Assembly (NCBI GenBank): GCA_964394685.1
Contig: CAYMYO010000003.1
Span: forward strand, 16,218 to 80,217
Source: an uncultured Gammaproteobacteria bacterium
GTDB taxonomy: Bacteria > Patescibacteriota > Microgenomatia > UBA10105 > UBA927
Length of the DNA: 64,000 bases
Direction of reading: 5' to 3'
Position numbers and translations under genes: made by a program. The stretch's first letter is position 1; each line of letters starts with the position of its first letter. The notes beneath the pieces were generated by a model that saw only the letters and a list, made by a program, of their open reading frames with translations, did not search any database and was not told where the DNA came from. Shown piece by piece: positions 44,313 to 59,244 of the stretch.

Positions 44313-44350
44313 GGAAGCTTCTTGGTATAATGAAAGCCGAAGTTTGTATT

Positions 44351-44433
44351 GGAGAGTGGGCAGAACGGTAATGCACAGGTTTGCTAAACCTGCATCGCGC
44401 AAGCGGTGAGTGGGTTCGACTCCCACACTCTCC
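44351..44433 (+). tRNA. tRNA-Ser (anticodon GCT)
   Basis: Acceptor GGAGAGT/ACTCTCC, anticodon stem CAGGT/ACCTG with loop TTGCTAA, 17-nt variable arm, T-arm GTGGG-TTCGACT-CCCAC. CCA not encoded. Confidence 0.8.
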
Positions 44434-44456
44434 GCAGCACCAAAAAATATAACATT

Positions 44457-44539
44457 GGAGGGGTGCTCCGAATGGTAAGGAACCAGTCTTGAAAACTGGC
44501 GCTCGCAAGGGCTTGCAGGTTCGAGTCCTGTCCCCTCCG
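44457..44539 (+). tRNA. tRNA-Ser (anticodon TGA)
   Basis: Acceptor GGAGGGG/CCCCTCC, anticodon stem CCAGT/ACTGG with loop CTTGAAA, long variable arm, T-arm GCAGG-TTCGAGT-CCTGT. Confidence 0.8.
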
Positions 44540-44611
44540 CCTTCGCCTCGCTAAAGCTCGGCTTCGGCGAGATGAAATCCGCCAAGACGAGCGAAAGCGG
44601 GTTTAGCTTAT

Positions 44612-44851
44612 ATGTATTATGTTTATATTTTGAAATGTTCAGACAATAGAACCTACTCAGGTTGCACAGATAATCTGAAAGACAGAATAGATAGACACAA
44701 TAAAGGCAATGTCCCCGCCACAAAAGATCGTCTTCCAATAAAACTCATTTCATATTTTGCTTTTTTAAACAAATATACTGCTTTCAACTTCGAAAAATAT
44801 CTCAAATCTGGTTCAGGAAGAGCGTTTCTAAAGAAACACAAAATTATATAA
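44612..44851 (+). CDS. small GIY-YIG nuclease-family protein (paralog)
   Basis: MYYVYILKCSDNRTYSGCTDNLKDRIDRHNKG. 79 aa. C-terminus FEKYLKSGSGRAFLKKH parallels FESYLKTGSGFAFRNKH of the first copy. Confidence 0.6.
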   Translation: MYYVYILKCSDNRTYSGCTDNLKDRIDRHNKGNVPATKDRLPIKLISYFAFLNKYTAFNFEKYLKSGSGRAFLKKHKII

Positions 44852-44855
44852 TTTT

Positions 44856-45518
44856 ATGAATACAACAGACATCCTTCAAGAACTAAAAAAACACAAAAAT
44901 CCTCAAAATGTTGCCGGCATGGCGCGGTTTGGGATTAATCCGAAGAATACTCTTGGTATTTCCATTCCATTACTTCGTGTACTAGCTAAGAAAATTGGAA
45001 AAGATCATGCTCTTGCACAGGAATTGTGGAAAAGCGATATCCATGAGGCACGGATTTTAGCAGCCCTAGTTGATGACGTTAATCTTGTAACACAAAAACA
45101 AATGGACCAATGGGTAGCCGACTTTGATAGTTGGGATGTGTGCGATCAGGTGTGTATGAATTTATTTGATAAAACGCCGTGGGCGTATGAAAAGGCGATT
45201 GAATGGGCCAGTAACAGGAAAGAATTTACGAAACGCGCAGGTTTTGCGCTTATGGCTGTACTTGCATTTCATGACAAGAAAGCAGAGGATAAAAAGTTTG
45301 ATCAGTTTTTTCCCATTATCGAGCGCGAAGCAATGGATGAACGAAATTATGTAAAGAAAGCAGTTAATTGGGCTCTTCGGCAAATAGGAAAACGAAACAA
45401 CACATGTATGAAGAAAGCAACAGTGTGTGCAAATAGACTCATAGAAATTGATAGCAAAAGTGCTCACTGGATAGCGTCAGACGCACTTCGAGAATTTCGA
45501 AAGAAATCTCTACGTTAA
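44856..45518 (+). CDS. DNA alkylation repair protein (AlkD/AlkC-like HEAT-repeat glycosylase family)
   Basis: N-terminal LQELKKHKNPQNVAGMARFGINPKNTLGISIPLLRVLAKKIGKDHALAQELW is characteristic of the DNA alkylation repair enzyme family. 220 aa. Confidence 0.55.
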   Translation: MNTTDILQELKKHKNPQNVAGMARFGINPKNTLGISIPLLRVLAKKIGKDHALAQELWKSDIHEARILAALVDDVNLVTQKQMDQWVADFDSWDVCDQVCMNLFDKTPWAYEKAIEWASNRKEFTKRAGFALMAVLAFHDKKAEDKKFDQFFPIIEREAMDERNYVKKAVNWALRQIGKRNNTCMKKATVCANRLIEIDSKSAHWIASDALREFRKKSLR

Positions 45519-45557
45519 CACTACTTTTTTTCTGCTTCTTGGTATATACTTTCTAGT

Positions 45558-46064
45558 ATGGATACTGATTCTGCCCCAAAAGAAGAAGTTGCTCTTACCT
45601 GGTCATCTCCTTCAAGATTATTTAAGCGCAGGGATAAGGAATATTTTACTAATATTGGTGCAATTGTATTTCTTCTTACGGTTATTCTCATATTTGCACG
45701 GGAATTTGTACTCGTTGGTGCCGTATTATCAATCGTATTTCTTGTCTATGTTCTTTCCACAGTTGCCCCAGAAGAAGTAAAGCATAGTATTTCCAATCTT
45801 GGCATTGAAAGTGCTGGACATTTTTATCGATACGAGGAGCTTGTAGAGTTTTGGTTTGAAGATCAATGGGGACAAACACTACTCATCCTAAGACCTATTA
45901 TTGGGTCAAGAATTATTATACTTCTTGGTGCAATAGAGAAACAGCGTGTTCAAGAAGCACTAAAACAATTTATTGCATATCGTGAACAACCGGAAAAGTC
46001 ATGGGTTGATAACGCCGCATCCTGGCTTTCTAAAAAAGTCCCCCTCGAAAAACCTCAATCGTAG
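45558..46064 (+). CDS. hypothetical membrane protein
   Basis: Two adjacent TM helices (IGAIVFLLTVILIFA...LVGAVLSIVFLVYVL). 168 aa. Confidence 0.3.
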   Translation: MDTDSAPKEEVALTWSSPSRLFKRRDKEYFTNIGAIVFLLTVILIFAREFVLVGAVLSIVFLVYVLSTVAPEEVKHSISNLGIESAGHFYRYEELVEFWFEDQWGQTLLILRPIIGSRIIILLGAIEKQRVQEALKQFIAYREQPEKSWVDNAASWLSKKVPLEKPQS

Positions 46065-46105
46065 TGTTTAGCTGTTATTCGTAGTAAAATACACGCATAG
46101 CAATT

Positions 46106-46178
46106 GCGCCCGTAGCTTAATGGATAGAGCATTAGATTGCGGATCTAACGGTTGTGGGTTCAACTCCCGCCGGGCGCG
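46106..46178 (+). tRNA. tRNA-Arg (anticodon GCG)
   Basis: Acceptor GCGCCCG/CGGGCGC, D-arm GCTT-AATGGATA-GAGC, anticodon stem TTAGA/TCTAA with loop TTGCGGA, T-arm GTGGG-TTCAACT-CCCGC. 73 nt. Confidence 0.75.
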
Positions 46179-46190
46179 CAAGAAGCAGTT

Positions 46191-46212
46191 CCCTGCCTGC
46201 CGGCAGGCAGGG
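46191..46212. terminator. perfect 22-bp palindrome (CCCTGCCTGCCGGCAGGCAGGG), hairpin/terminator candidate after tRNA-Arg
   Basis: Read directly. 11-bp perfect stem with no spacer. Followed by ATTCTG rather than a clean U-tract. Confidence 0.35.
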
Positions 46213-46251
46213 ATTCTGCACAGGAACGCCAAGGGAGGGTTGGTTGAGTCG

Positions 46252-46280
46252 TTGACAGTAAGCACATTAACATTTATGAT
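46252..46280 (+). promoter_or_regulatory. candidate sigma70-type promoter for LAGLIDADG gene (TTGACA-17 nt-TATGAT)
   Basis: TTGACA at 46252-46257, 17-nt spacer, TATGAT at 46275-46280, 6 nt before the ATG at 46287. Confidence 0.45.
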
Positions 46281-46286
46281 GTTTAT

Positions 46287-47282
46287 ATGAATAGAGTGCA
46301 ATTAGATCCTGAAGACTTAAAGATGTACTTTGAGCAAATTAAAATCAAATCAAATTTATCTTATGCTAATTTTGCTAGCTTGTGGAAGATAAATCCTCGA
46401 ACATTTCGGGATTGGAAAAAAGGAACGTATTCTTTTCCCGAAGAGTTTAGTATTAATATTGGTCACCAATTACATGTTTGTCTCCCTTCGACTGCGATGA
46501 TAAAAAATGAAACTGAAATTAGGGCACGAGCAGGTAGAATTGGTGGGATTGTGAGTATAAAAAAATATGGGAATCCGGGAACAGCCATCGGGAGATCAAA
46601 AGGAGGAATGAATTCGCTGGTTACACATCAAAGAATGCGTACTGGCTTTAAAATAGCAAAAGTGTTTTCTGTACCACAACTAACAGCGCAATTTGCAGAA
46701 TTTATTGGCATAATGCTTGGTGACGGAGGCATAACAAAATATCAAATAAGAATAACATTGAATAAGATTGATGATAAGGATTACGTTGTTTACGTTAGAA
46801 AACTTATTAATAAAATATTTCGAGAATATCCATCGCTTGAGTTTAAAAAAGGGAAAGCGGTTGATCTGGTAGTTTCTGGAAAAAATCTTGTGCAACTATT
46901 ACTTTCTTATGGGCTCGTAAAGGGAGATAAAATTAAACAACAAATAAAAATACCTTCTTGGATTAATACTAGCGATGAGTTCAAGTTAAGTGTATTACGA
47001 GGGTTGTTTGATACTGATGGATCAGTCTATTTAGATAAACATTATAAAAAAAAGATTGTTTATAAAAGTATTTGCGTTGCTTACACGAGTTATTCAACCC
47101 CTTTACGGCTAAATATTTATGATACTTTACGTGAATTTGGTTTTTCACCTACAGTTAGTACAAAAAATAGAATTATGCTGAGAAAAAGAAAAGATGTTGT
47201 TAATTTTTTTAACTTAGTAAAATCAAATAATAAGAAGCATTTAATACGTTATGCACAATATTTGAAAATGTGTGAAGGTTAA
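46287..47282 (+). CDS. LAGLIDADG-family homing endonuclease-like protein (two-motif, single-chain type) with N-terminal HTH-like region
   Basis: Two LAGLIDADG-type motifs: FIGIMLGDGGI and LRGLFDTDGSV, about 100 aa apart. 331 aa. Stop codon is 5 nt before the tRNA-Ser(CGA) start. Confidence 0.7.
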   Translation: MNRVQLDPEDLKMYFEQIKIKSNLSYANFASLWKINPRTFRDWKKGTYSFPEEFSINIGHQLHVCLPSTAMIKNETEIRARAGRIGGIVSIKKYGNPGTAIGRSKGGMNSLVTHQRMRTGFKIAKVFSVPQLTAQFAEFIGIMLGDGGITKYQIRITLNKIDDKDYVVYVRKLINKIFREYPSLEFKKGKAVDLVVSGKNLVQLLLSYGLVKGDKIKQQIKIPSWINTSDEFKLSVLRGLFDTDGSVYLDKHYKKKIVYKSICVAYTSYSTPLRLNIYDTLREFGFSPTVSTKNRIMLRKRKDVVNFFNLVKSNNKKHLIRYAQYLKMCEG

Positions 47283-47287
47283 TACGT

Positions 47288-47376
47288 GGAGAGGTGCAGG
47301 GAATGGCTATCCGGACAGTCTCGAAAACTGTTACCCTGAAAGGGGTTTGTGGGTTCGAGTCCCACCCTCTCCGCCA
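47288..47376 (+). tRNA. tRNA-Ser (anticodon CGA), CCA encoded
   Basis: Acceptor GGAGAGG/CCTCTCC, anticodon stem ACAGT/ACTGT with loop CTCGAAA, long variable arm, T-arm GTGGG-TTCGAGT-CCCAC, then GCCA. Confidence 0.75.
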
Positions 47377-47488
47377 AGACGGACAAAATGAAAAACGGGT
47401 TGTTCTGGCAATCCAGAGCATTAGAAAAATACGTTCTAACCTAAAACAGAGGTTGGCCTGACGGGGGGCGGGATTAGAACCTAATATT

Positions 47489-47992
47489 ATGGAAAAAGCG
47501 AATCGACAACCATTGGCGCACGTTATTATTGGTTTTATCGGATCAGGAAAAACGACATTTGCAAAAAAACTGGAAAAAGAAACCGGGGCGTTGCGATTTA
47601 CAAAAGATGAATGGGTAATTGCAATTTTCGGTCATGATCCAACCATTGATGGATTTGAAACATACGATAATCGAATCTCAAAGTTGGCCGTTGACGTAGC
47701 GCTGTATTGTTTAAAAGCTGGGAACGATATCATTATAGATGAAGGATTTTGGGTCCGATCTCAACGAGATGAAATTCGTAAGAAAATAGAAAAGGCCGGC
47801 GGAGAAGTTCAATTGTACTATGTAAAAAATACCCATGAAACGATGAAGCAAAGAATATCCAAAAGAAACCAAAAACCAACGGAGGACGCTTTTGTTATAA
47901 GCCAGGAAATGTATGATGGCTATAAAAAATATTTTGAAGAACCCTCACCTAAAGAAAAATGTATTATTGTTGAGAATATAGAGGAGAAGTAA
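47489..47992 (+). CDS. P-loop NTPase/kinase-like protein (AAA_33/zeta-toxin-like fold)
   Basis: Walker A IGFIGSGKTTFAKK at the N-terminus. 167 aa. Family not resolved. Confidence 0.4.
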   Translation: MEKANRQPLAHVIIGFIGSGKTTFAKKLEKETGALRFTKDEWVIAIFGHDPTIDGFETYDNRISKLAVDVALYCLKAGNDIIIDEGFWVRSQRDEIRKKIEKAGGEVQLYYVKNTHETMKQRISKRNQKPTEDAFVISQEMYDGYKKYFEEPSPKEKCIIVENIEEK

Positions 47993-48035
47993 TTGTCTGG
48001 AAATAGGTTATAACTCTGTAAATGGTATTCTGCCT

Positions 48036-48452
48036 ATGAAAATTGCAATATCCGCAAGTATGACGTTTTTTAAAGAAATGCGCTCTGTTAAAAAGGAGTT
48101 GGAACAACGTGGACATACAGTTATTGTCCCGATGGGGATAGAGGAAGAAGTACCTATTGAAGCAAAGCCAGGTATTTCAAAAGATGAACTTATCGCAGCA
48201 AAAATTGAATATGATTTCATAAGAAAACACTTTAAGAATATTGAAGAATCAGATGCAATTTTCATATTAAATTATCCAAGAAAAGGAATTAATGGGTATA
48301 TTGGTGGAAATACATTTTTGGAAATGGGTCATGCGTTTGGGCTAAGAAAGAAGATATTCATCTTATATCCACTTCCAATAATGGATTACGAATCAGAAAT
48401 GCACGCAATGCAGCCGGTTGTTCTTAACGGAGATTTAACAATAATTAAGTAG
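48036..48452 (+). CDS. nucleoside 2-deoxyribosyltransferase-like protein (uncertain)
   Basis: MKIAISASMTFF N-terminus and FLEMGHAFGL region resemble the NDT/Rossmann-like fold with catalytic Glu. 138 aa. Confidence 0.35.
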   Translation: MKIAISASMTFFKEMRSVKKELEQRGHTVIVPMGIEEEVPIEAKPGISKDELIAAKIEYDFIRKHFKNIEESDAIFILNYPRKGINGYIGGNTFLEMGHAFGLRKKIFILYPLPIMDYESEMHAMQPVVLNGDLTIIK

Positions 48453-48455
48453 TAT

Positions 48456-48530
48456 GCTCTTGTAGTTCAATGGATAGAACGCGGCCCTCCGGAGGCTGTA
48501 ATTGCAGTCCGACTCTGCACAGGAGCGCCA
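48456..48530 (+). tRNA. tRNA-Arg (anticodon CCG), CCA encoded
   Basis: Acceptor GCTCTTG/CAGGAGC (one G-U), D-arm GTTC-AATGGATA-GAAC, anticodon stem CGGCC/GGCTG with loop CTCCGGA, T-arm TGCAG-TCCGACT-CTGCA (noncanonical T-loop), then GCCA. Overlaps the 3' 64 nt of the minus-strand EamA ORF. Confidence 0.5.
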
Positions 48531-49453
48531 CGTCTTATTTTCCCAATTGTTGCAATTGCCACACCTGTTAATACTAATAGTCCTCCGGCAATAAGTCCGT
48601 AGGTCAGTTTTTCTCCGAGCAATAGAAAATTCAATACAACTGCAAAAACAGTTTCAATATATTGTTTGAACGATGCGGTTGTCGCGCTAAGATGTTCAAT
48701 GGCCCACTGAAAGAGGAAATAGGTAATGATGGTCAGAAAAATTGCTGAGTATGCTAACACAAAGATATAACTTGGTTGAAACACTTGAGGAGTGAAAAAC
48801 TGTTGTTTGGTAAGAAGAACAAGAATAAAACTAGTAAGCGTTGCAAGAAAAAAATAAAATGATGTTGTCGTAACAGGAGAAAATTGATTCAGTGCTCTTA
48901 TGCGGCGTGACCAAATTGCATATAACGTCCAAGAAAGCATTCCGACTGCAATAAAGAGATTTCCTTGAAAACTTCCAGCCATCATCTCACCTTTTTCGAT
49001 AACAGGAAGAATAATAATAATACAGACTCCGATAAGTCCTACAAAAATTCCTATCCATTTTGATAAAGAGTTTTTTTCTCGTATCAAAATATACGATAAA
49101 ATCGCAGTTGTCAGTGGTCCAGCGGTATAAATAAGGGTTGCAGAGTTTGCAGTGGTTGTTTTAATACCATAAAAAAATAATGGTACATTCAATGCACCAA
49201 TGAAACTAGGAATGAGCAATTGTTTCCAGTTTAACCAAGCCTTTTTCTCGCGAAGAAAAAATGGAAGGATGAGGATTGATGCGATGAAGAATCGATAAAA
49301 AGCGACAACAAATGGATGCATGTCCTTTACTAATATTTTTGCCGTAACTCCGGCGGTTGACCAAAGGAGAGATGCGACAATAAGCGCAATTAATGCCAGA
49401 GTCTTTTGTGACATATGACGATTATACCGTACAAAATGATATAATACATCCAT
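48467..49453 (-). CDS. EamA/DMT-family transporter
   Basis: 10 predicted TM helices in two 5-TM halves (EamA duplication). 328 aa. C-terminal tail reads through the tRNA-Arg complement. Confidence 0.6.
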   Translation of the reverse strand: MDVLYHFVRYNRHMSQKTLALIALIVASLLWSTAGVTAKILVKDMHPFVVAFYRFFIASILILPFFLREKKAWLNWKQLLIPSFIGALNVPLFFYGIKTTTANSATLIYTAGPLTTAILSYILIREKNSLSKWIGIFVGLIGVCIIIILPVIEKGEMMAGSFQGNLFIAVGMLSWTLYAIWSRRIRALNQFSPVTTTSFYFFLATLTSFILVLLTKQQFFTPQVFQPSYIFVLAYSAIFLTIITYFLFQWAIEHLSATTASFKQYIETVFAVVLNFLLLGEKLTYGLIAGGLLVLTGVAIATIGKIRRGAPVQSRTAITASGGPRSIH

Positions 49454-50040
49454 TCAAAGACTTATATTTTATGAATAATAACAAAAAAATCGCCAATATT
49501 ATTTATGAAGCTGCGACAATGAAACGCATGAAGCGAGTTGGGTTTCAGATTCTGGGTAATGGTGAAGAGACAATTGGTGAACATTCATTTATGACAGCAG
49601 TGATTGCGTATTTTTTAGCAAAGAAATTACATCTTGATATTGGGAAAATCCTTACAATGAGTATATTTCACGATATGCATGAAACAAGAGTTGGTGATGC
49701 ACATAAAATTTCTCTTCGGTATATTACTCGGAATCAAAAAAAGGCAAATCAAGACATTTTTGGATTCGTAGACACAAGCCTCGTTCAATTATTAGAAGAG
49801 TATGAAGAGAAAAAATCAATAGAAGCGCAAATTGTATTTGAGGCAAATGTGATAGCGCTTCTTGTTCGATTAAAACCTCTTGTTGAACGAGGGGATATGC
49901 ATGCAAAGAAATGGATGATGAATAAAAGTCGCATTCGAACTCCCGAGGGGATTGCTTTAACGAAGACGCTCCTCGAGACAGATTCTCAAGACTGGTGGTT
50001 GGATATCCAACAAGAGTTAGAAGAGGAATATAAACGATAA
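49393..50040 (+). CDS. HD-domain phosphohydrolase (YfbR-like 5'-deoxynucleotidase family)
   Basis: H...HD...H...D metal ligands (EHSFMTAV, FHDMHETRVGD). Likely start at the Met near 49471 to avoid overlap with the divergent EamA gene. Confidence 0.55.
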   Translation: MPESFVTYDDYTVQNDIIHPFKDLYFMNNNKKIANIIYEAATMKRMKRVGFQILGNGEETIGEHSFMTAVIAYFLAKKLHLDIGKILTMSIFHDMHETRVGDAHKISLRYITRNQKKANQDIFGFVDTSLVQLLEEYEEKKSIEAQIVFEANVIALLVRLKPLVERGDMHAKKWMMNKSRIRTPEGIALTKTLLETDSQDWWLDIQQELEEEYKR

Positions 50041-50104
50041 TGCTTTTTGGAAGGGTCGCATATTGAACGAAGTGAAACCCTGAGCAAAGCGAAGGGGTTG
50101 GTAT

Positions 50105-50190
50105 GGAGAGGTGTGATAATTGGTAGTCGCCCCGCTTGGAAAGCGGGTGTCCCGGAAACGGGATTAGGGGTTCGAGTCCCCTCCTCTCCG
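50105..50190 (+). tRNA. tRNA-Ser (anticodon GGA)
   Basis: Acceptor GGAGAGG/CCTCTCC, anticodon stem CCCGC/GCGGG with loop TTGGAAA, 18-nt variable arm, T-arm AGGGG-TTCGAGT-CCCCT. Confidence 0.8.
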
Positions 50191-50322
50191 CAGTAGTCTC
50201 AAGGTTCTACCCGACCCATTCACTACCTCTGAAGGGGTTGCTGTGGCTTGCTAAACCCTCTTGAAATAAACATTTATCGTTTCTGAAGCCTGGAGAGAGC
50301 TGGGGGATGTGATTATAGGACC

Positions 50323-50829
50323 TTAATGTCTCTTTTTAATTCCGAATTTATCCGCTTTTTGTATTTCCTCGATAGTTGTTTTGATCTCTTCAAATCCCTC
50401 TTGTAGAGTTAGTGTTTTACCACAATTATCACACTTAAATATTCCACCGTTTTTGCGCAGTTTTATTATTTGCTTTTTTCCCCTCAGCCAATTTTTTGAA
50501 TAATAAGCTGCCGTGTTGGTGGCAAGTTGTAAATTCCATTTTCTATTTGATTCTTCATCTGATAATCCATTGTCTGGAATGCTCCATTTTTTTCTTAGAA
50601 GAGCTATATCTTTTTGAAAATCAGGTTTGGCGATTAGAAGTTTCGTTCTTTGTTTGGCTCGTGTAGCTAATGTTTTGAAATATTCGTCTTTCATAGCCTG
50701 ATTATAGTGCAATGATGTCGCTTTAGGTTCAGGAATAGAGTAAAATACAGACAACATGAATACCGACTTAACCTTTATTACCAACGAAAAAGACAAGAAT
50801 CTTTCTGAGAGGTTCAAGGTACTCATCAA
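50323..50829 (-). CDS. hypothetical protein with C-terminal CxxC zinc-ribbon-like motif
   Basis: CDNCGKTLTLQEGFEE near the C-terminus. Probable start at the internal Met (about 50754), which removes the overlap with the divergent PLD gene. Confidence 0.3.
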   Translation of the reverse strand: MMSTLNLSERFLSFSLVIKVKSVFMLSVFYSIPEPKATSLHYNQAMKDEYFKTLATRAKQRTKLLIAKPDFQKDIALLRKKWSIPDNGLSDEESNRKWNLQLATNTAAYYSKNWLRGKKQIIKLRKNGGIFKCDNCGKTLTLQEGFEEIKTTIEEIQKADKFGIKKRH

Positions 50830-52270
50830 AGATACTAAATTCTTTGATGTTTTAGTCGGCTATTTTTATACCAGCGGTTTCTATGCCATCTACAAATCAC
50901 TTGAAAATACCGAGAAAGTAAGAATTCTCATTGGTATTAGCACGAACAGGGATACGTATAACCTAATTCAAAAGTCCTATGTTCCAGTACAAGAAAGCCT
51001 GCAATTTTCTCATGCCGAAGCAAAAGAAAAGTTTTCTGACACTTTAGTTGAGGAAATGGGCACTTCAGAAGACAATCACGATACAGAAGAAGGGGTCAAT
51101 AAGTTTCTGGAATGGTTAAAAAGTGGGAAGCTGGAAATAAAAGCCTATCCCTCGGAAAATATCCACGCCAAGCTCTATGTTATGACCTTTGCAGAGGGAG
51201 ATAGAGACGTTGGTAGAGTCATTACTGGTTCGAGTAACTTTACTCAAGCGGGCCTAATTGATAACTTGGAATTTAACGTAGAACTGAAAACTAGATCTGA
51301 CTATGAATTTGCACAACTTAAGTTTAATGAGCTTTGGGAAAATGCAGTTGATGTTTCAGAAAAATACATAGAGACAATCCAAACCAAGACTTGGCTAAAT
51401 AACACCATTACTCCATACGATTTATACCTAAAATTTCTTTACGAGTATTTTAAGGACGAGATAAGTCGAACAAGCGAAGTATTTTACAAATATGTTCCAA
51501 CAGAATTTAAGAAATTAGAATATCAAGAGCAAGCAGTATTAAATGCTAAAAAGATTCTCGGAATGGTTTTAAATTCAGACGAAAACACAAATAAAGGAGC
51601 TTTTGCCAAAGATGATTTAATTTCCGAAGTTAAAACAGACGTTAATACAAAGCCTTATATAGAAGGTAAGTACCTCAAAAAATATTTAATAGAGAAAACA
51701 TTATTTCTGGAATGGGATACAAAAAGAGTTCCCCATCTTTTAAGTAGACCTACTTTCCCTGAACTTTATAACAGGCCTAAAATAATGAGAGGCAGAGTAA
51801 CAGAAGGAACATATGATGATACAGGTCTAGTTAGTAATGACAGTATATTGCTTTTTCAAAGATTTGCAGATCTCAAAGGAGTTAAAAATAACAGTATTGC
51901 AATTAGCATACAAAAATTTAATTCTCACTCAAGGGAGGAACTAGAAAATATTTCTCTTAAGTTTGATCTGAAATATCTACTAGCAATAATAAATTCACAA
52001 TTTGCTAATGTTTATCTTAATAATATTCGTAGACATCGTTTAGAGAATTATTTTTACCCTGATGATTTTCGTAATCTTCCTATAGCGGAAATTCCCCTAT
52101 CTGAGCAGAAGCAATTTATTGATTTTGTAGACAAGATTATCGACTTAAAGAAATCTAGTTTGGAAAAAGATAAACATCAAGCACTTGACTACGAAAAACA
52201 AATTGACCAATTAGTTTATAAACTCTACGACTTAACTGACAAAGAAAAAGAAATTGTTGAAAACGCTTGA
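50756..52270 (+). CDS. PLD-family (HKD) nuclease fused to TaqI_C-like target-recognition domain, no methyltransferase motifs
   Basis: N-terminal HKD motif NIHAKLYVMTF...GSSNFTQAGL. C-terminal KYLLAIINSQFANVYL and QIDQLVYKLYDLTDKEKEIVEN match the TaqI_C signature that normally follows a gamma-class N6-MTase domain. No NPPY/DPPY motif found. Confidence 0.6.
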   Translation: MNTDLTFITNEKDKNLSERFKVLIKDTKFFDVLVGYFYTSGFYAIYKSLENTEKVRILIGISTNRDTYNLIQKSYVPVQESLQFSHAEAKEKFSDTLVEEMGTSEDNHDTEEGVNKFLEWLKSGKLEIKAYPSENIHAKLYVMTFAEGDRDVGRVITGSSNFTQAGLIDNLEFNVELKTRSDYEFAQLKFNELWENAVDVSEKYIETIQTKTWLNNTITPYDLYLKFLYEYFKDEISRTSEVFYKYVPTEFKKLEYQEQAVLNAKKILGMVLNSDENTNKGAFAKDDLISEVKTDVNTKPYIEGKYLKKYLIEKTLFLEWDTKRVPHLLSRPTFPELYNRPKIMRGRVTEGTYDDTGLVSNDSILLFQRFADLKGVKNNSIAISIQKFNSHSREELENISLKFDLKYLLAIINSQFANVYLNNIRRHRLENYFYPDDFRNLPIAEIPLSEQKQFIDFVDKIIDLKKSSLEKDKHQALDYEKQIDQLVYKLYDLTDKEKEIVENA

Positions 52271-53465
52271 TTCACAAAATATACGATTAACTAAAGGTAA
52301 GTATATGGGAACAAACTTAGATAATGATAATTGGATTCAATCTTCTGATGACAATTTTAATATCGGAGAAGAGACCTTTAATGATTTAGAAATCCACCCC
52401 ACCCCAATAAATAATTTTTACTATTTTTTTAACAAGAGTAAAAATAAATTAATTAAGCAATTCGTTTTAGAAAAGAAAGCCAAAGTCGATTATATATGCA
52501 AGGTTATTTTAATTAAAAAGGGAGATAAGTTTACACCCCGGCTTTCTTTTTCAGTTAGAAATAGAGCCGGAAAAATAGTTGAAGATTCGATTGTACTAAC
52601 AGAGATTGACACCCACTTGGTTAAGGCAAATATAAATTTAAATGAATGTCATGAAAACTTCTGGCACCTCATTTCCTTTTTGGAATCACTTCGACAAATT
52701 GAAATACCGAGAGAAAGTTTTTCTTTGGTCTCTCAAGCAGAGAGCGACATAGTTAAAGCCATAAGAGGACGCGGTGTCGAGAGCGTGTTAAGCATTATTA
52801 AGCAACTAGCTTTAATTAATGGTGTATCTCTGTCAGAGAAAGATATCAATCAAATATTAAAACGCAAAGAGAAGCTTACTTTGTTTGGCTCTTCAATAAT
52901 AGAACAATCATCTGATGAAAAATGGTGGCAGATTTTTTTTGAAAACAATAAATGGATATTTGGTTATGGTTTAAATTATCAGATTTTACGACAGGAACAG
53001 GATCAACCTCATTATGGAGGAACAAGAGTAAATGGAAGAGGCGGACAAATAGGAGACTATTTAACTTCAACAGTGGGAGATTTAAGTTTTACGGTATTAG
53101 TTGAAATAAAAACTCCCGACACCTCACTCCTCCAAGGAGCTAAGGAAATAAGATCAGGAGTATGGAGCCTTTCTAAGGAGCTCACTGACGCTTTATCGCA
53201 AATACAAGCAAATATCGATATTTGGGATAAGCAAGGGTCTAGACAGCCTGAAAATGTAGACGAGTTTGAGAAAAAAAATATATTTACCGTTCAACCTAAG
53301 GGTATTATAGTTATTGGACAACTAAGCCAACTTGATAGTAGAAGTAAAAGAGAAACTTTTCAGAGATTTCGAAAATCTATACATGGAATAGATATTTTGA
53401 CTTTTGACGAATTATTAAACAGAGCAAAATTTATTGTTGACGAAAAAGCAGAAGATAAAAAATAA
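52254..53465 (+). CDS. Shedu-like DUF4263 nuclease-domain protein
   Basis: EKWWQIFFENNKWIFGYGLNY, GDLSFTVLVEIKTP (D...E.K PD-(D/E)xK-like core) and KGIIVIGQ resemble the DUF4263 (Shedu SduA) conserved blocks. Overlaps the upstream gene by 17 nt. Confidence 0.5.
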   Translation: MLKTLDSQNIRLTKGKYMGTNLDNDNWIQSSDDNFNIGEETFNDLEIHPTPINNFYYFFNKSKNKLIKQFVLEKKAKVDYICKVILIKKGDKFTPRLSFSVRNRAGKIVEDSIVLTEIDTHLVKANINLNECHENFWHLISFLESLRQIEIPRESFSLVSQAESDIVKAIRGRGVESVLSIIKQLALINGVSLSEKDINQILKRKEKLTLFGSSIIEQSSDEKWWQIFFENNKWIFGYGLNYQILRQEQDQPHYGGTRVNGRGGQIGDYLTSTVGDLSFTVLVEIKTPDTSLLQGAKEIRSGVWSLSKELTDALSQIQANIDIWDKQGSRQPENVDEFEKKNIFTVQPKGIIVIGQLSQLDSRSKRETFQRFRKSIHGIDILTFDELLNRAKFIVDEKAEDKK

Positions 53466-54225
53466 AGATATGTCTCAATATTACAATCCAAACCGCGTGA
53501 GGAATAAATACGACTCGGGCGCAAAAGAGCTGTTCAGGTTGAGTCGGGGGAAGATTGATTTATTTATTAATTGTCCTCGTTGTTTTTATCTTGACCGCAA
53601 GCTTGGCGTCAAACAGCCGCCGGGATATCCGTTTTCTCTCAATTCCGCTGTCGATAAACTTCTCAAGAAGGAATTCGACATCCATCGAGCCAAAGGCACA
53701 CCACATCCGCTCATGAAAGCCTACGGCATAGATGCTGTACCACTTGCTCACAAGAAGATTGATGAATGGCGGGACTCACTAAGAGCTGGTATTACGTTTC
53801 AGATTGAAGGAACGAATGTAGTCGTTACCGGTGGCGTTGATGATGTATGGGTAAAACCTGATGGAGAATATATTATCGTTGATTACAAGGCGACATCAAA
53901 GGATGCGGAAGTGACACTCGATGCTGATTGGCAAATAGGATACAAACGGCAGATGGAAATATATCAATGGTTGTTTAGAAAAAACGGCTTCAAAGTATCT
54001 TCAACGGGATATTTTGTTTACTGTAACGGCGATGCTGATAAAGATGCTTTTGATGGTAAATTAGAGTTCGATATTAAAATTATTCCTTATACTGGCGATG
54101 ATTCTTGGGTCGAAAAAACAATTCTTGATGCGATTGAATGTCTCAAGGGAAATAAACTACCTGCACCTGGATTAGACTGCGATTACTGTAAATATCGTCA
54201 AGCCGTAAAGAAATTTGAGCAGTAG
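53434..54225 (+). CDS. Cas4-like PD-(D/E)xK nuclease family protein with 4-Cys cluster
   Basis: N-terminal CPRCFYLD, catalytic-core-like GGVDDVW...YIIVDYKAT (D...D/E.K), and C-terminal CDYCKY give the Cas4/RecB-nuclease-like Cys arrangement. Likely start at MSQYY (53470). Confidence 0.55.
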   Translation: MLTKKQKIKNKDMSQYYNPNRVRNKYDSGAKELFRLSRGKIDLFINCPRCFYLDRKLGVKQPPGYPFSLNSAVDKLLKKEFDIHRAKGTPHPLMKAYGIDAVPLAHKKIDEWRDSLRAGITFQIEGTNVVVTGGVDDVWVKPDGEYIIVDYKATSKDAEVTLDADWQIGYKRQMEIYQWLFRKNGFKVSSTGYFVYCNGDADKDAFDGKLEFDIKIIPYTGDDSWVEKTILDAIECLKGNKLPAPGLDCDYCKYRQAVKKFEQ

Positions 54226-54251
54226 TATGGTATGGACGGTAAGGAGAAAAA

Positions 54252-55556
54252 ATGGATCTACTGACAAAATCATTGAACAGTTTTAGTTTTGAAGACATCG
54301 TTGCTTTTCAAAAACAGAATCATCCGGAAGGCACAGAACTCGATTATAAAAAAGATTTTCCAGATAAGGGATTAGCAAAAATTATTGCGTCGCTTGCCAA
54401 CACAAGGGGCGGAGTGATAATTCTTGGTATTGAAGAAGATGAAAAAACTGGATTACCAATAGGTGCCGATGGTATCGTTCCCGGAAAACATGAAGACAGG
54501 GTATATCAATTTGTCGGGAATATTAATCCTATTCCGAAAATTGTATGCAATACAACCAATGAGGTTAATGGAAAAGTTTTTGTGCTAATCAGAGTGTTTG
54601 AGGGTGATGAAACACCATACTATGCGCATAACGATTCAAATATATGGATTAGAACAGGAAATATATGTAAACCGATTGATATTGTGTCACCGGAGGGCGC
54701 GGAACTTTTGTTTAAGAAGAGCGAGCGAGCAGAGATGGGAAGAATGCAAAATCGAGACGCAGCGGAAAGTAACCTACAGTCCTTTTTGAAAAGAGCAGAA
54801 AAACAACGGTTACGTGAGATTGAAATAGAAAAAGAAAATTATGAAACTAAAAAAAGACAACACGAGGACGGTGATAACTTTCCTCCCTTTAAATCTCAAA
54901 TTGTTCAATCGCCAATCGGACAGAAGGTTTCGTTATTAAAAATATTGGTACAACCATATTATCCGCATGGAGAATTTATCCGTCCGTTAGATATTGAGCC
55001 AATTATTCTTGAGGCTAGGAGCAGGAATGCTATTTACGAATTTCCAGCCAACCAGATGTATGAGTCTATAACTGAAGGAATGGTTTATTTCGATTGGTCG
55101 CGAGGAGATGGAGAGGTACAATCTCAACAGATATTTGCTAATGGGTTGGGATATAGCGTTCATGATGTTTTGCGCCCTACACGTGAAGGTCGACCAGTAA
55201 CTCATCTTGGTTGGCTAGCAGGAGAGGTGTATATAACATTGGTTGGAATGAAGAAAATTCTAGAAAAATTTGGCTATCAGGGAACACTAATAGGTAAAGT
55301 GTCAATTGATAATATTGAAGGAGTAATAATTAATCCAATAATAGAAAGAATGTTTCCCGATAATAAAACTTCCGTTTTTGCTCATAGAACTTGGCCGCTA
55401 CGACTTGATACAAGAATTTTATCCGAATCAGAAAAGCTTCAAGAATACGTAACCGAGTTGGTTCGGGACATCCATTGGTCGTTTGGCTATAAAGACGTTT
55501 CAAGACAAATTACGATGAAATATTTATTTGAAAAGGGATATTTGAAAGAAAGTTAA
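54252..55556 (+). CDS. AlbA_2 (Schlafen-like divergent AAA / putative DNA-binding) domain protein
   Basis: N-terminal EDIVAFQKQNHPEGTELDYKKDF...LAKIIASLANTRGGVIILGIEED matches the AlbA_2 (PF04326-like) consensus. 434 aa with an uncharacterised C-terminal half. Confidence 0.6.
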   Translation: MDLLTKSLNSFSFEDIVAFQKQNHPEGTELDYKKDFPDKGLAKIIASLANTRGGVIILGIEEDEKTGLPIGADGIVPGKHEDRVYQFVGNINPIPKIVCNTTNEVNGKVFVLIRVFEGDETPYYAHNDSNIWIRTGNICKPIDIVSPEGAELLFKKSERAEMGRMQNRDAAESNLQSFLKRAEKQRLREIEIEKENYETKKRQHEDGDNFPPFKSQIVQSPIGQKVSLLKILVQPYYPHGEFIRPLDIEPIILEARSRNAIYEFPANQMYESITEGMVYFDWSRGDGEVQSQQIFANGLGYSVHDVLRPTREGRPVTHLGWLAGEVYITLVGMKKILEKFGYQGTLIGKVSIDNIEGVIINPIIERMFPDNKTSVFAHRTWPLRLDTRILSESEKLQEYVTELVRDIHWSFGYKDVSRQITMKYLFEKGYLKES

Positions 55557-55572
55557 AAACAGTAATATTATT

Positions 55573-56349
55573 ATGAACCAATCAACTTTATCAGAAATAA
55601 TTAAGACCGAATTAGGATTAATCGAAAATGCGCCCAATAAATACAAAGATTTTTATCATCATGCGCTTCAATCAATTAACTTACTACAATCTTTTATTAT
55701 TTCTGTAAAAAATGAAGGGTGGTTTTTTGTGGCCTTTCTGTCGCATATAAAAAAGCATCAATTACTTTCGTTGTTATCAATAATTAGAAGACATCATGTC
55801 CAGACCGTAATGAATTTACGGCAAGTATTAGAATCAGGGGTAAGTGCCTCATATGTATTAGCAAATCCGAATATCGATGATTTTGCAATAATTACGCCTG
55901 AAGGCTTGCTAGATGTCAAAGAAGAATTGAAGAGTAGAAGGTATAAATGGTTAGAAAAAAACTATCCCAAAGGATCTGGTGCTATTAAAGCTATGAAAAA
56001 ACAAATGCAGTTGTCCAGTCATTCCAATATTGTTGATACACAAAGAACTTTCAAATATGAAGAAATTGACGGCGCGTCTCAATTAAAGACGTCTTTTTTT
56101 GATCTCGAAAATGAATTTCAAGAAAAAGCGGATTTGTGGGCTACTGCAAATATCGTAATGGGATTAATGGATTTATTCTATGGAATAAACATGAAGCAAA
56201 AAGTTCTTACTTTCTCACCAGCATTTATAGAAGAATTGCAGAATTTGGATAAGGAAAGTAAAAGGCTGAAAGAAATTATTATGAATACTCCCAATTTTAA
56301 AAGAGCTGATAAAATTGCAAAAAAGAGAGATAAAAGGATTAATTATTAA
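55573..56349 (+). CDS. hypothetical protein (last gene of 5-gene operon)
   Basis: 258 aa, 16 nt downstream of the AlbA_2 gene. No motifs recognised. Confidence 0.3.
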   Translation: MNQSTLSEIIKTELGLIENAPNKYKDFYHHALQSINLLQSFIISVKNEGWFFVAFLSHIKKHQLLSLLSIIRRHHVQTVMNLRQVLESGVSASYVLANPNIDDFAIITPEGLLDVKEELKSRRYKWLEKNYPKGSGAIKAMKKQMQLSSHSNIVDTQRTFKYEEIDGASQLKTSFFDLENEFQEKADLWATANIVMGLMDLFYGINMKQKVLTFSPAFIEELQNLDKESKRLKEIIMNTPNFKRADKIAKKRDKRINY

Positions 56350-56894
56350 ATAATAGTTTGAAGAAGAGGATCTATTTGTTGGCGCAACATATTTTCATCA
56401 TATGTTTCAGCTACTTGAATTGCGAGAAATTTAATTCCAGCTTTAGTTAATACGCTTTCAACTTTTTGATCCCTATTTCTTCGGTTGAATTGTAGATGCG
56501 ATTTGCCGTTGAGTTCAATTGCAATTACGGGTGACATGACTTCTTTATCAAATAGCACAAAGTCTAATGAGAGATGGTCAATCAGCCGGTACAGATTATC
56601 ATGGTCCTTTACGTCGTTTTTAACATCCAAAATTGCAGCAAGGCGCACCTGTGGGTATGTGTAGTATTTGTCGCCATAGAGTTTCACAAGGATATCGAAA
56701 AATTGCCGTTCATCTGCACGCATAATTGAGGGTTTTTTGGAGAAGAAACCACGTATGTCTGCCAGATCCAGAAGCTCATCGCGCGTTTTATTGTATTTAT
56801 CTTTGTAGTAAATAGCGATCCAGGCAAAAATGACAATGAAGCCGATAAGGAAAACGAACGCTGTATTGTTAAGAGTAGTGGTTAGTATGGGCAT
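56346..56894 (-). CDS. DUF2726-family (PD-(D/E)xK-like) protein with N-terminal TM
   Basis: LSLDFVLFDKEVMSPVIAIELNGKSH...IKFLAIQV matches the DUF2726 core (D..l.d....v.aIElDG.sH). N-terminal TM anchor. Confidence 0.55.
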   Translation of the reverse strand: MPILTTTLNNTAFVFLIGFIVIFAWIAIYYKDKYNKTRDELLDLADIRGFFSKKPSIMRADERQFFDILVKLYGDKYYTYPQVRLAAILDVKNDVKDHDNLYRLIDHLSLDFVLFDKEVMSPVIAIELNGKSHLQFNRRNRDQKVESVLTKAGIKFLAIQVAETYDENMLRQQIDPLLQTII

Positions 56895-56962: not shown

Positions 56963-57400
56963 ATGAATCAAACAGACGCCTTGCTTCAAGGTCAATTTGG
57001 ACAATACATAAAGAAGCTCGAAGAGTTTGAAAAGAAATACGGTGTGGCGTGGGTAAGGAGTAAATACGCGGATTTTCCCACGAAAGACAATCCATATTAT
57101 GAATTTGCAAAAAAGATGCATGCAGCGTACTTATACCGACAAAAAAGAAACAGGCCTTCAGAAAAACCCATTCATGAAGTCAGCATCACAAGGAATGCCC
57201 TTAAAAAGATGCATAAGGAGAAGTTTGGTATTTCCAACCAATTGCTAAATTCTTTAGCAGGATTTAATAGCGGCGGTGGTAAAATAGCTCACTCCTCTGA
57301 GGAGTTTTACGATGGCTGGATTGCATTTAATTCCAAGAATATACATAATCCCAAAATAAAAACTATTGTTGAGGAGGCGGCTGTAAAAAAGATGAAGTGA
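56963..57400 (+). CDS. hypothetical protein, co-transcribed with RNaseH-helicase gene
   Basis: 145 aa. 4-nt overlap (ATGA) with the downstream gene. Confidence 0.3.
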   Translation: MNQTDALLQGQFGQYIKKLEEFEKKYGVAWVRSKYADFPTKDNPYYEFAKKMHAAYLYRQKRNRPSEKPIHEVSITRNALKKMHKEKFGISNQLLNSLAGFNSGGGKIAHSSEEFYDGWIAFNSKNIHNPKIKTIVEEAAVKKMK

Positions 57401-59244
57401 TGAAAAAGATCTCTCATTTTATTAGCAACAGAGAAAAAAAAGTAAAAAAGTATATCGATCGAAACGGACTAACGGGGAAGAGAGTAAAAGTAAAGAGAGT
57501 GAGGCCAGTAAAGCCCGTAGGCAAGGAAATTCTTGAGTCCTCTGAAACTATCGATGTCTATTACATCACGGGGGGAGGTTCAAATGCTACGATTCATGAC
57601 GCTGCATCCATATCGGTAGTCAAAAATGGAAACATTTTTATTCAAAAGAATATTGAGGGCAAGACGGCAAATGAGGCAGAATATTTAGCACTCATCGAAG
57701 CGTTGCGCGATGTTGGTGATAAAAGGGCGGTCATTTACAGCAATTCGCAGTTGGTGGTGTTTACGGTTACCAATTACTACAAGATGAAAGCGGAAAATTT
57801 GAAACCTCTATATAAACAAGCTAGGGATCTAATTGATGGAAAGAATGTTGATATTTTATGGATTTCCTATTTCAAAAATAAGGCGGTTGATCAGCATGCG
57901 CAGCATTCTTTTAAATCCCAACCGAAACAGAGATTAAATGAAAGACGCATCGATATATCAGACATCACTTTAAGTTCAGAACAAAAAGAACTATTTGAAT
58001 TACTTGAAAAGGCGAATAATCACTATTTTTTTACGGGTAAAGCTGGAACAGGCAAATCTGTATTGCTTCAATACTTTCGTCAAAAGTCAGAAAAACACAT
58101 TGTTGTATGTGCGCCGACAGGTGTGGCCGCTCTGAATATTGGGGGGCAAACTATTCATTCGCTTTTTAAAATACCTCCTGGGTTTGTGAAAAAAGATAGT
58201 CTGAAAATTGAGAAAAGAACGGCTAAGTTGTTAAAACATATTGATTCCGTGGTTATTGACGAGGTTTCTATGGTGAGTCCTGATTTGATGGATGCGATGG
58301 ATCATCTCCTGAGGCAGGCGAGAAATAGCACTGTGCCGTTTGGAGGAGTACAAATGGTTATGTTTGGTGATTTGTATCAGCTACCTCCAGTGTTGACGGA
58401 TAAAGAACTTTATGAGTATTTTGAGAAAAATTACGGGGGATATTTTTTCTTCAACGCGCATGTTTGGCAACGCACTTCGTTTGAAATTCGGGAATTAACA
58501 ACGATTTTTCGGCAAAAAGATGAGGATTTTAAAATAATACTTAATGCAATAAGAGAGGGAACTATTACCGATGAGCAACTTGCGCTACTAAATAAGAGAA
58601 CTGTTGCAGCACCTTCGGAGGGCGTTGTGATTCTAGCAACCATAAATGTGTCAGTTGCCAAAATTAACGAGATGAGACTCTCGAAGCTTGAAGCAACGGT
58701 GTATGAATACGAGGCTGAGATAGAGGGAAGTCTTGAAAAGTCAGCGTTTCCTGCTGACGAAGTGTTACGTTTGAAAAAGGGAGCACAGGTAATGTTGCTT
58801 AGAAATGATAAGGAGAAGCGATGGGTTAATGGATCAATGGGATATATACATTCCCTTACTGATACGATAATACAAGTGAGTATTGATGGTGTTAACTATA
58901 CGATTCCAAAAGAGACATGGAAAAAAATACGATACAACTTTAATCAAACTACAAATAGTATTGAAGAAGAGGTTGTCAGTTCATTTACGCAATTTCCGTT
59001 GAAACTTGCCTGGGCGATCACTATTCATAAATCACAGGGACAAACATATACGACAGTAGCTATAGATATGGGAAGAGGCGCATTTGCCTCTGGACAAGCA
59101 TATGTTGCGTTAAGCAGGTGTCGAACGCTTGATGGTATTTATTTGAAAAGACCGATATTGCGACAAGATATTATTGTGGAATCGAAAATTAAGGATTTTA
59201 TGAAGAATACTATCCATTTACAAATTCCGCCCAATTTGGGTTAA
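57397..59244 (+). CDS. RNase H-like domain fused to PIF1/RecD-family (AAA_30) helicase
   Basis: N-terminal RNase H block (YITGGGSNA...TANEAEYLALIEALRDV...YSNSQLVV). Helicase Walker A FFTGKAGTGKSVLL, Walker B VIDEVSMV. C-terminal ITIHKSQGQTY...ALSRCRTL is typical of PIF1/RecD-type helicases. Confidence 0.65.
   Translation: MMKKISHFISNREKKVKKYIDRNGLTGKRVKVKRVRPVKPVGKEILESSETIDVYYITGGGSNATIHDAASISVVKNGNIFIQKNIEGKTANEAEYLALIEALRDVGDKRAVIYSNSQLVVFTVTNYYKMKAENLKPLYKQARDLIDGKNVDILWISYFKNKAVDQHAQHSFKSQPKQRLNERRIDISDITLSSEQKELFELLEKANNHYFFTGKAGTGKSVLLQYFRQKSEKHIVVCAPTGVAALNIGGQTIHSLFKIPPGFVKKDSLKIEKRTAKLLKHIDSVVIDEVSMVSPDLMDAMDHLLRQARNSTVPFGGVQMVMFGDLYQLPPVLTDKELYEYFEKNYGGYFFFNAHVWQRTSFEIRELTTIFRQKDEDFKIILNAIREGTITDEQLALLNKRTVAAPSEGVVILATINVSVAKINEMRLSKLEATVYEYEAEIEGSLEKSAFPADEVLRLKKGAQVMLLRNDKEKRWVNGSMGYIHSLTDTIIQVSIDGVNYTIPKETWKKIRYNFNQTTNSIEEEVVSSFTQFPLKLAWAITIHKSQGQTYTTVAIDMGRGAFASGQAYVALSRCRTLDGIYLKRPILRQDIIVESKIKDFMKNTIHLQIPPNLG

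Follow-up and report, generated by a model that had tools for sequence, protein, structure and literature searches.

The five plus-strand genes at positions 50756–56349 of the 64,000-nt stretch of contig CAYMYO010000003.1 analysed here (hereafter the 64-kb window) very probably represent a mosaic variable or defence island, i.e. independent modules that lie in the same orientation by chance, in the small and gene-dense genome of a member of the Patescibacteria (candidate phyla radiation, CPR; Microgenomates-like). These genes had been read in a first-pass annotation as a novel multi-nuclease defence module expressed from one transcript. We find this reading unsupported: no conservation of the order was seen, the first gene is a chimera, the third is a conserved solo gene, and the fourth is found with other partners. 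The island would thus be made up of a dead restriction–modification (RM)-like system, an intact Shedu, a solo Cas4-like nuclease, and two genes from small families, followed by a DUF2726 gene and an RNase H–PIF1 helicase gene. Such an island is routine in itself, and the result keeps a false “novel five-gene system” off candidate lists.

Gene content, order, and spacing

The five open reading frames (ORFs) are present as first annotated: gene 1 (50756–52270, 504 aa), gene 2 (52305–53465, 386 aa, a type I Shedu SduA), gene 3 (53470–54225, 251 aa, a Cas4-like PD-(D/E)xK nuclease), gene 4 (54252–55556, an AlbA_2/Schlafen-N protein), and gene 5 (55573–56349, a 258-aa helical protein from a small unnamed family), all on the plus strand. 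Hidden Markov model (HMM) searches also matched the domains expected for the first four products, namely PLDc_2, SduA_C, PDDEXK_1, and SLFN_AlbA_2, and the description of the region as defence-type DNA holds, given the bona fide Shedu, the RM-like relic, and the DUF2726 and PIF1-type genes nearby. Conservation of the five genes as a unit was evaluated in a co-occurrence table of 173 related loci, anchored separately on genes 1, 2, 3, 4, and 5. None of these loci (0/173) contained more than two of the five families. The proposed conserved module is thus not borne out, and the five-gene order, whose absence from other genomes the first-pass annotation had itself named among its grounds for rejection, is not conserved across the 173 loci.

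Public gene calls start gene 2 at ATG 52305 and gene 3 at ATG 53470; the maximal ORFs span 52254–53465 (from TTG 52254) and 53434–54225, respectively. We retained the ATG 53470 start for gene 3 based on these public calls and on the alignment of relatives, 80 of 80 of which align from residue 1 of this version. With the ATG starts, the successive spacings from gene 1 to gene 5 are 34, 4, 26, and 16 nt, with zero overlaps, so that the gaps of 26 and 16 nt reported initially stand, while the overlaps of 17 and 32 nt were products of the maximal-ORF TTG starts. Spacing of this kind is the norm in this genome: across the 64-kb window, same-strand gaps have a median of 24 nt, those of up to 40 nt account for 63%, and 91% of the sequence is coding. 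The tight packing, which had been taken to imply one transcript, is thus nothing special here. No convincing intrinsic terminator was detected between the five genes, and co-transcription of some or all of them is possible, with no evidence of a shared mechanism; because the genome is compact, co-transcription would say little about shared function. The G+C content at third codon positions (GC3) is heterogeneous along the cluster (0.21–0.38), with values of 0.37 and 0.21 for the N- and C-terminal parts of gene 1, and 0.27, 0.38, 0.29, and 0.28 for genes 2 to 5, compared to an average of 0.33 ± 0.05 over the genes of the window.

We consider it highly improbable that all five genes, or genes 2 to 5, cooperate as a multi-nuclease defence system specific to this lineage, whose conservation would go unseen because it is too young or too rare. 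Such a system would be consistent with the shared strand, the gaps of 4–34 nt without clear terminators, the nuclease or nucleic-acid-binding domains known from defence contexts in four of the five products, and the defence-type genes (DUF2726, PIF1 helicase) found downstream. It would have to be reconciled, however, with a spacing that is typical of the genome, a first gene that is a deletion relic, the lack of any related locus with more than two of the five families, the presence of genes 3, 4, and 5 each in other and differing neighbourhoods, and the ability of Shedu to work alone.

Origin of gene 1

Based on alignments to its relatives, gene 1 reads as a chimera, the in-frame scar of a deletion of ~5 kb between two adjacent genes. 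Codons 1–268 (50756–51559, plus strand) correspond to the N-terminal part of a PLD–SNF2 helicase, with its PLD (HKD) nuclease domain and a linker, cut just before the ATPase motifs, and codons 269–504 (51560–52270, plus strand) to the C-terminal TaqI_C-like specificity region of an Eco57I/MmeI-type (type IIG-like) methyltransferase, without its catalytic domain. The deletion would have fused helicase codon 268 to the 3′ part of the neighbouring gene for a type IIG-like N6-adenine methyltransferase, of which approximately 236 codons remain. The “PLD/TaqI_C nuclease” of the first-pass annotation is partly upheld. Its PLD part is matched by Pfam HMMs over residues 28–200 (PLDc_2, 9e-9; RE_NgoFVII, 8e-8) and contains the HxK and GSxN motifs. 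The TaqI_C assignment (PF12950) is marginal: scanned by itself, the C-terminal part matches the full profile with an E-value of 1.9e-5 and 25.3 bits, vs a cut-off of 26.5. It is backed by homology to methylase C-termini, including a PADLOC match between the final 100 residues and the C-terminal end of type IIG enzymes (REase_MTase_IIG, 3.6e-11). The combination is not a natural architecture but fused fragments of two genes. Gene 1 had no helicase match in Pfam and lacks the SNF2 ATPase/helicase core, while the Eco57I/N6_Mtase catalytic domain is absent both from gene 1 and from the scanned neighbours in the window.

The two halves of gene 1 have separate sets of relatives. The best 120 of 1,065 protein matches cover ~53–60% of its length at 64–89% identity, and nearly all of them are PLD and SNF2 helicases or N-terminal fragments thereof. 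Across 185,579 species genomes (one genome per species), 265 related loci were identified, and none of the best 80 of these 265 relatives matched gene 1 beyond residue ~275–302. The nearest ones are CPR genomes, namely Levyibacteriota (97%), Daviesbacteria (93%), and Roizmanbacteria (92%). Compared to the intact 1063-aa helicase of locus L015, residues 1–268 of gene 1 display 97% amino acid identity, and the blastp alignment stops after “...LNAKKIL”. On the other side of the junction, residues 400–502 align at 44–46% identity with the methylases of L015 and L007 (1099–1150 aa) over their final ~110 residues, so that the part kept from the methylase corresponds to approximately residues 858–1099 of an intact relative. 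In nucleotide comparisons, homology stops at 51558–51560 (codon 268) for all helicase relatives. Since conservation in the relatives continues through helicase residues 251–400 (79–90% identical throughout), this junction represents a true breakpoint rather than a module edge.

An exhaustive HMMER search of 1.84 billion representative proteins supported this interpretation. Matches restricted to the first half (gene 1 residues 1 to ~268) were obtained at the N-terminus of 92 proteins with a median length of 1067 aa, and matches restricted to the second half (residues ~268–503) at the extreme C-terminus of 56 proteins of about 1000–1300 aa (median 1115 aa). No protein among these 1.84 billion representatives shared the gene 1 junction. 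Two apparent matches to both halves (P0271 and P0274) were rejected as BLAST run-on alignments in ordinary helicases, without real C-terminal similarity. A 1300-aa protein (P0252) represents another, independent in-frame helicase::methylase fusion, in which helicase residues ~3–619 are joined to methylase residues ~489–1098. Helicase/methylase deletions, or assembly skips, are thus recurrent.

The intact pair was examined in relatives with at least 6.5 kb of sequence past the helicase start (n = 42), in which the helicase is full-length in 41 of 42 cases and followed directly by the methylase, again in 41 of 42. The Eco57I/N6_Mtase catalytic domain of an intact relative spans methylase residues 432–713, and the L015 methylase is matched by PADLOC REase_MTase_IIG at 7.7e-236. 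This arrangement has been recognised before, in that PADLOC has models for both members (C3a139 “HKD+Snf2” and REase_MTase_IIG), and PLD and SNF coding sequences adjoining type IIG RM genes have been noted (PMC9881135). Gene 1 resembles this pair in that its halves match the helicase N-terminus (97%, Levyibacteriota) and the methylase C-terminus, and differs from it by the loss of helicase codons 269–1063 and methylase codons 1 to ~857 (~5 kb). Given that every ATPase motif and the entire methylase catalytic domain have been deleted, the RM-like system at gene 1 can be considered dead from its predicted domain content. Gene 1 also illustrates how an in-frame deletion between neighbouring RM genes can mimic a new architecture.

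The intact pair itself is exceptionally well conserved across distant phyla. Loci L007–L086 display 65–97% amino acid identity over the matched helicase N-terminal region of ~270 residues, and include CPR, Nitrospirota, Planctomycetota, Desulfobacterota, and Bacteroidota, as well as bins labelled Nanoarchaeota and Halobacteria, implying a wide horizontal spread of the pair. Within these loci, the entire helicase and the N-terminal half of the methylase are conserved, and the C-terminal half of the methylase, i.e. its specificity region, is variable (20–30%). In another relative (L002/L003, 4637–15117), IS91-type and tyrosine-recombinase genes directly follow an 878-aa helicase gene, which is probably interrupted, being shorter than the intact form of ~1063 aa. 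The methylase gene of this relative is split, with a Y1 transposase domain, and unrelated genes (Bro-N and genes of unknown function) lie between helicase and methylase.

The ancestral pair also shares domains with Class 1 DISARM, namely DrmD (SNF2), DrmMI (N6 methylase), and DrmC (PLD). Membership in Class 1 DISARM was ruled out based on architecture, as the PLD domain of the ancestral pair is fused to the helicase and the system is deleted here. Neither DrmA nor DrmB/DUF1998 was found in the window, among the L015 helicase and downstream genes scanned, or among the scanned genes that follow the L073 methylase.

An assembly artefact at the gene 1 junction appears improbable. Under this explanation, the genome would contain an intact helicase–methylase pair, or a different join, and the contig would have skipped ~5 kb. 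Consistent with this, the 504-aa product is found on one NCBI contig only, the conserved helicase gene tends to break contigs (which end within 6.5 kb of the helicase start in 37 of 79 relatives), and Logan assemblies of related runs break inside gene 3. DNA identical to g4–g7 (gene 4 onward) is present in the related runs SRR13723393, SRR13723394, and SRR13723397. The search for a second record of the junction was likewise negative, with an empty exact look-up in the assembly index and fragments from other assemblies all ending before residue 204. The join is however in frame and colinear, connecting the 5′ part of one gene to the 3′ part of the adjacent one on the same strand, and an assembler would need a k-mer shared between unrelated positions to produce it. 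In addition, the independent fusion in P0252, with a different breakpoint, indicates that deletions of this type do happen, or at the least that there are records of them from elsewhere.

The deletion scar could in principle have gained a new role. PLD-type restriction enzymes with a separate DNA-binding domain exist, as exemplified by BfiI, and the combination of a PLD nuclease with TaqI_C-type recognition might yield a BfiI-like, ATP-independent nuclease directed by sequence or modification. This would be in line with an open ORF in which the PLD domain is 97% identical to intact relatives, retains HxK and GSxN, and shows no decay, with a ratio of nonsynonymous to synonymous substitution rates (dN/dS) of 0.034 for the N-terminal part compared to L015 and about 0.03 compared to relatives. 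Such values imply either that the deletion is recent relative to the divergence of these relatives, or that the PLD part is still under selection. We nevertheless regard a neo-functional fusion as very unlikely: the low dN/dS is mostly a legacy of the time preceding the deletion, the architecture has no counterpart in the 1.84 billion representatives and hence gives no sign of selection for it, the TaqI_C region normally works within a methylase scaffold, and a sequence-specific nuclease without its methylase would be self-toxic.

A type I Shedu

Gene 2 is the sole intact recognised anti-phage system predicted among the five genes, and its domain content and length identify it as a canonical single-protein type I Shedu. 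The initial call of a DUF4263 Shedu-type nuclease was confirmed with a full-profile Pfam match to SduA_C/DUF4263 (positions 1–159, 6.5e-31) and a full-length PADLOC match to SduA (PDLC00391, 1e-137, residues 27–397 of the 403 encoded by the maximal ORF). The protein aligns to the nuclease domain of Bacillus cereus SduA (PDB 8ti8, 4e-19), including a catalytic strand VLVEIKTP vs VLIEIKTP, and combines a long N-terminal region with a C-terminal nuclease over 386 aa, which is also the mean length published for type I Shedu (Loeff et al. preprint, 2023). It thus resembles described type I Shedu proteins (Doron 2018; Loeff et al. and Gu et al. preprints, 2023) in length, DUF4263 domain, and full-length SduA match, while differing in its CPR source and in its low identity (~30%) to annotated plasmid Shedu proteins. 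The presence of a type I Shedu in a Patescibacteria genome is a minor point of wider use.

According to published work, a single protein makes up the Shedu system, holding free DNA ends in a clamp and nicking them. By analogy, the gene 2 product may assemble as a tetramer in which the N-terminal domains clamp free DNA ends, and its PD-(D/E)xK domain would then nick or cleave the clamped DNA. That Shedu is usually a single-gene system, as the first-pass annotation had itself pointed out, agrees with the literature and with the full-length relatives of gene 2 found on Streptomyces and Rhizobium plasmids, which stand alone among unrelated neighbours. Similarly, any SduA is found in only 1 of 80 gene 3 loci and 1 of 80 gene 1 loci.

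The position of gene 2, directly downstream of an RM-type gene and on the same strand, follows a known pattern, since 602 of 5,499 Shedu genes lie inside RM loci (Gu et al. preprint, 2023). The difference here is that deletion has left the RM-like partner as a relic lacking both helicase and methylase, so that any complementarity has been lost. Another multi-gene arrangement involving a DUF4263 nuclease is KELShedu, in which a 12.6-kDa dsDNA-binding protein is encoded 3 bp upstream of a DUF4263 protein with a short N-terminus (PMC12577705). Gene 2 was excluded from this type on architecture: the upstream gene is a 504-aa RM relic located 34 nt away instead of a partner of ~110 aa, and the SduA carries the full type I N-terminal region. 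A viral origin of gene 2 was also considered and dropped, as no relative was found in IMG/VR.

Genes 4 and 5

For gene 4, the AlbA_2/Schlafen-like assignment proposed initially was recovered with a Pfam match to SLFN_AlbA_2 (1.6e-14). The protein consists of this AlbA_2/Schlafen-N domain, a long helix, and a C-terminal alpha/beta domain, with no Pfam match beyond residue 142 even at E ≤ 5. Many members of the bacterial AlbA_2 “ATP-binding protein” family carry a C-terminal HATPase_c_4-type ATPase and a winged helix-turn-helix domain, whereas gene 4 has neither according to Pfam and to its C-domain model, in which no ATPase match was obtained. Its family is specific to Patescibacteria and contains 52 clusters of full-length members. 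In all three independent contexts, relatives are preceded by a small DUF2188 gene (L175 7430–9308, L176 7446–9305, and L177 7728–9308), with an ORF of 113–115 aa between DUF2188 and the gene 4 homologue in two cases, and a divergent LexA-like repressor in two of the three. LexA, DUF2188, and AlbA_2 may possibly form an SOS-regulated module in Patescibacteria; gene 4 in the window has no DUF2188 or LexA partner.

Gene 5 had no Pfam match, including to HEPN families at E ≤ 5, and belongs to an unnamed family of 59 clusters. Its relatives (42–62% identity) were found in three unrelated contexts, none with homologues of genes 1 to 4: beside a SEC-C protein, beside an integrated element with GmrSD and EcoRI methylase genes, and following a type III RM system, with DUF7695 and DUF2726 genes close by. 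The modelled fold resembles HEPN, a similarity at the fold level alone. Invariant residues are E13, Q77, R83, Q84, E87, Y94, W126, H150, N152, D177, N193, and D200, which do not form an Rx4-6H motif; given this and the lack of an HMM match, a HEPN assignment was not retained. Genes 4 and 5 would thus contribute a putative nucleic-acid-binding protein and a HEPN-like helical protein, respectively, both from small families with relatives in other contexts.

The solo Cas4-like gene and its neighbourhoods

Gene 3 fits the profile of a solo Cas4-like gene typical of CPR genomes, based on its sequence features and surroundings. The Cas4/RecB-like PD-(D/E)xK call of the first-pass annotation is supported by PDDEXK_1 (Pfam, 5e-14) and by Fe-S-type cysteines, with the qualification that the protein is not assigned to Cas_Cas4, that PADLOC Cas4 matches are weak (~1e-9), and that TIGR00372 cas4 scores 37.2 bits, below its cut-off of 65. 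No CRISPR array was detected in the 64-kb window, and no cas gene among the scanned neighbours in the window or among the family matches listed for the neighbours of gene 3 relatives. Given these absences and the sub-cut-off score, we rejected an identity as CRISPR-associated Cas4. The passages on CPR and DPANN in Hudaiberdiev et al. 2017 (PMC5704561) describe a solo-Cas4 whose inheritance is mostly vertical and whose evolution resembles that of regular cellular genes. Gene 3 resembles these in being Cas4-like with Fe-S-type cysteines, highly conserved, and located outside of a CRISPR-cas locus in a CPR genome; the likeness is by description, and upstream variability is not described in those passages. 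Gene 3 probably encodes a cellular DNA end-processing or repair enzyme.

The family comprises at least 582 metagenomic relatives, of which 80 loci (L095–L174; 68–84% identity, full length) were kept for neighbourhood counts, with subsets of 76 or 70 where stated. Flanking genes are highly variable, and the largest flanking family is found in only 8 of 76 loci. No homologue of gene 4 or gene 5 was found in these 80 loci, helicase or methylase pieces were found in 4 of 80, and among gene 4 relatives only the closest one (L175) also has a gene 3-like gene. In 47 of 70 loci, the upstream neighbour shares the strand of gene 3 and lies no more than 150 nt away, often at 0–20 nt. These neighbours include defence-type genes (OLD/Gabija-like ATPases, a Schlafen-type helicase, RhuM, AspBHI, Eco57I, type I HsdR, and one SduA) as well as ordinary ones (Obg, MFS, ROK, FtsK-gamma, and PMT_2), while downstream neighbours are mostly housekeeping genes. 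In 7–8 loci, gene 3 homologues lie between glycosyltransferase genes on the opposite strand, and in 3 of 80 (L137, L153, and L170) they adjoin PIF1-like helicases. Under the mosaic reading, variable and often defence-type genes would accumulate beside gene 3.

The recurrence of diverse defence genes close upstream of the gene 3 family is the sole lead of this analysis with some novelty. It raises the possibility, tentative and in our view unlikely, that exchangeable defence cassettes, be they Shedu, Dsr1-like, CBASS, OLD/Gabija-like ATPases, or RM-like pairs of type IIG, have gene 3 as their common partner or anchor on the downstream side, either because it provides shared DNA-end processing or because it marks a dedicated insertion hotspot for defence genes. 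This variable and often defence-rich position may inform the role of solo-Cas4 in small-genome, CRISPR-poor lineages.

A more specific version, in which gene 3 serves various upstream defence genes, each replaceable by another, as a common helper or terminal module on the same transcript (e.g. to process DNA ends), and in which the functional units are genes 2 and 3 or RM-[cargo]-gene 3 only, seems improbable. The 47 of 70 close upstream neighbours, many of them defence-type, would agree with such a helper, as would the loci in which a helicase–methylase pair is followed by a Dsr1-like, CBASS, or other gene and then by gene 3 (L015, L073, L105, and L126), and the SduA located 3 nt upstream of gene 3 in L101. 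A precedent for Cas4-family accessory enzymes is also reported for pAgo/ACE1 (PMC12094033). Conversely, the upstream neighbours also include housekeeping genes such as Obg and ROK, the loci with opposite-strand glycosyltransferase genes have no defence gene beside gene 3, SduA adjoins gene 3 in just 1 of 80 loci, short gaps are usual throughout this genome, and the solo-cas4 passages cited above point to evolution as ordinary cellular genes.

Observations at odds with a mosaic island

Several of our observations weigh against a chance assembly of independent modules. First, the tight same-strand packing without clear terminators makes a shared transcript, and with it some functional coupling, possible. 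Second, 47 close upstream neighbours of gene 3 in 70 loci, several of them defence genes, make some cooperation between gene 3 and defence systems conceivable. Third, two partial arrangements of the region recur elsewhere. The adjacency of SduA and gene 3 is found once more, in L101 (7504–11593), where a divergent SduA (33%) lies directly before a gene 3 homologue (81%); the genes flanking this pair encode an SDH-type ClpP-like protease and an FtsK/SpoIIIE-like protein. The order helicase–methylase–[cargo]–gene 3 recurs in the four loci named above, the cargo being a PIG-L and a Dsr1-like gene in L015, and a CBASS cyclase and NucC in L073. In L173, the helicase–methylase pair is on the opposite strand and divergent from gene 3. 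Fourth, L175 keeps homologues of gene 4 (81%), gene 3 (83%), and the DUF2726 gene (79%) together. Their order is different, with gene 3 downstream of gene 4 and other genes in place of gene 5, and this arrangement looks like local synteny between related genomes rather than a conserved module. Finally, the N-terminal part of gene 1 shows no decay, and both its junction and the linkage of genes 1, 2, and 3 are known from one MAG (metagenome-assembled genome) contig.

Flanking genes and island boundaries

Upstream of the cluster, the tRNA-Ser(GGA) gene reported initially was verified with ARAGORN at 50105–50191 (plus strand), with a type II cloverleaf fold (z = -4.25) and a score below the Rfam gathering threshold. 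The sole further occurrence of its 3′ end is in another tRNA-Ser, at 47350. An integrative island targeted to this tRNA was considered and rejected, as no att-like repeat of the tRNA 3′ end was found downstream, no significant direct or inverted repeat bounds the region, and no integrase was found among the scanned neighbours.

Between the tRNA and gene 1, a divergent ORF on the minus strand (50323–50694, 123 aa) carries a C-terminal CxxC motif and had no significant Pfam match. A homologue was detected in L175 (202–936, minus strand; tblastn match at 613–936, 44% over 108 aa, E-value 9e-27), and it is likewise divergent from a type III RM system there. This ORF could be an RM-associated regulator or accessory gene.

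On the other side, a convergent DUF2726 gene (56346–56894, minus strand; DUF2726, 4e-25) overlaps the gene 5 stop by 4 nt and ends the plus-strand run. One homologue in L175 (11710–12240, 79%) is near the gene 4 and gene 3 homologues, and another in L093 (11119–11619, 30%) lies two genes after a gene 5-like gene. Further downstream (56963–59244, plus strand), a gene for a 145-aa hypothetical protein overlaps the start of a gene encoding a 615-aa fusion of an RNase H-like domain (RNase_H/RVT_3, ~6e-6) and a PIF1 helicase (3e-35).

The region preceding the cluster (42886–50191) is dense in RNA genes, with a tmRNA at 42886–43295 (detected with Rfam and missed by ARAGORN) and six tRNA genes (four Ser and two Arg). 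Accessory-looking genes in this region include a DNA alkylation repair gene, an ORF with a LAGLIDADG domain (46287–47282), and an AAA_33/zeta-toxin-like kinase, along with a nucleoside deoxyribosyltransferase-like protein and an HD phosphohydrolase.

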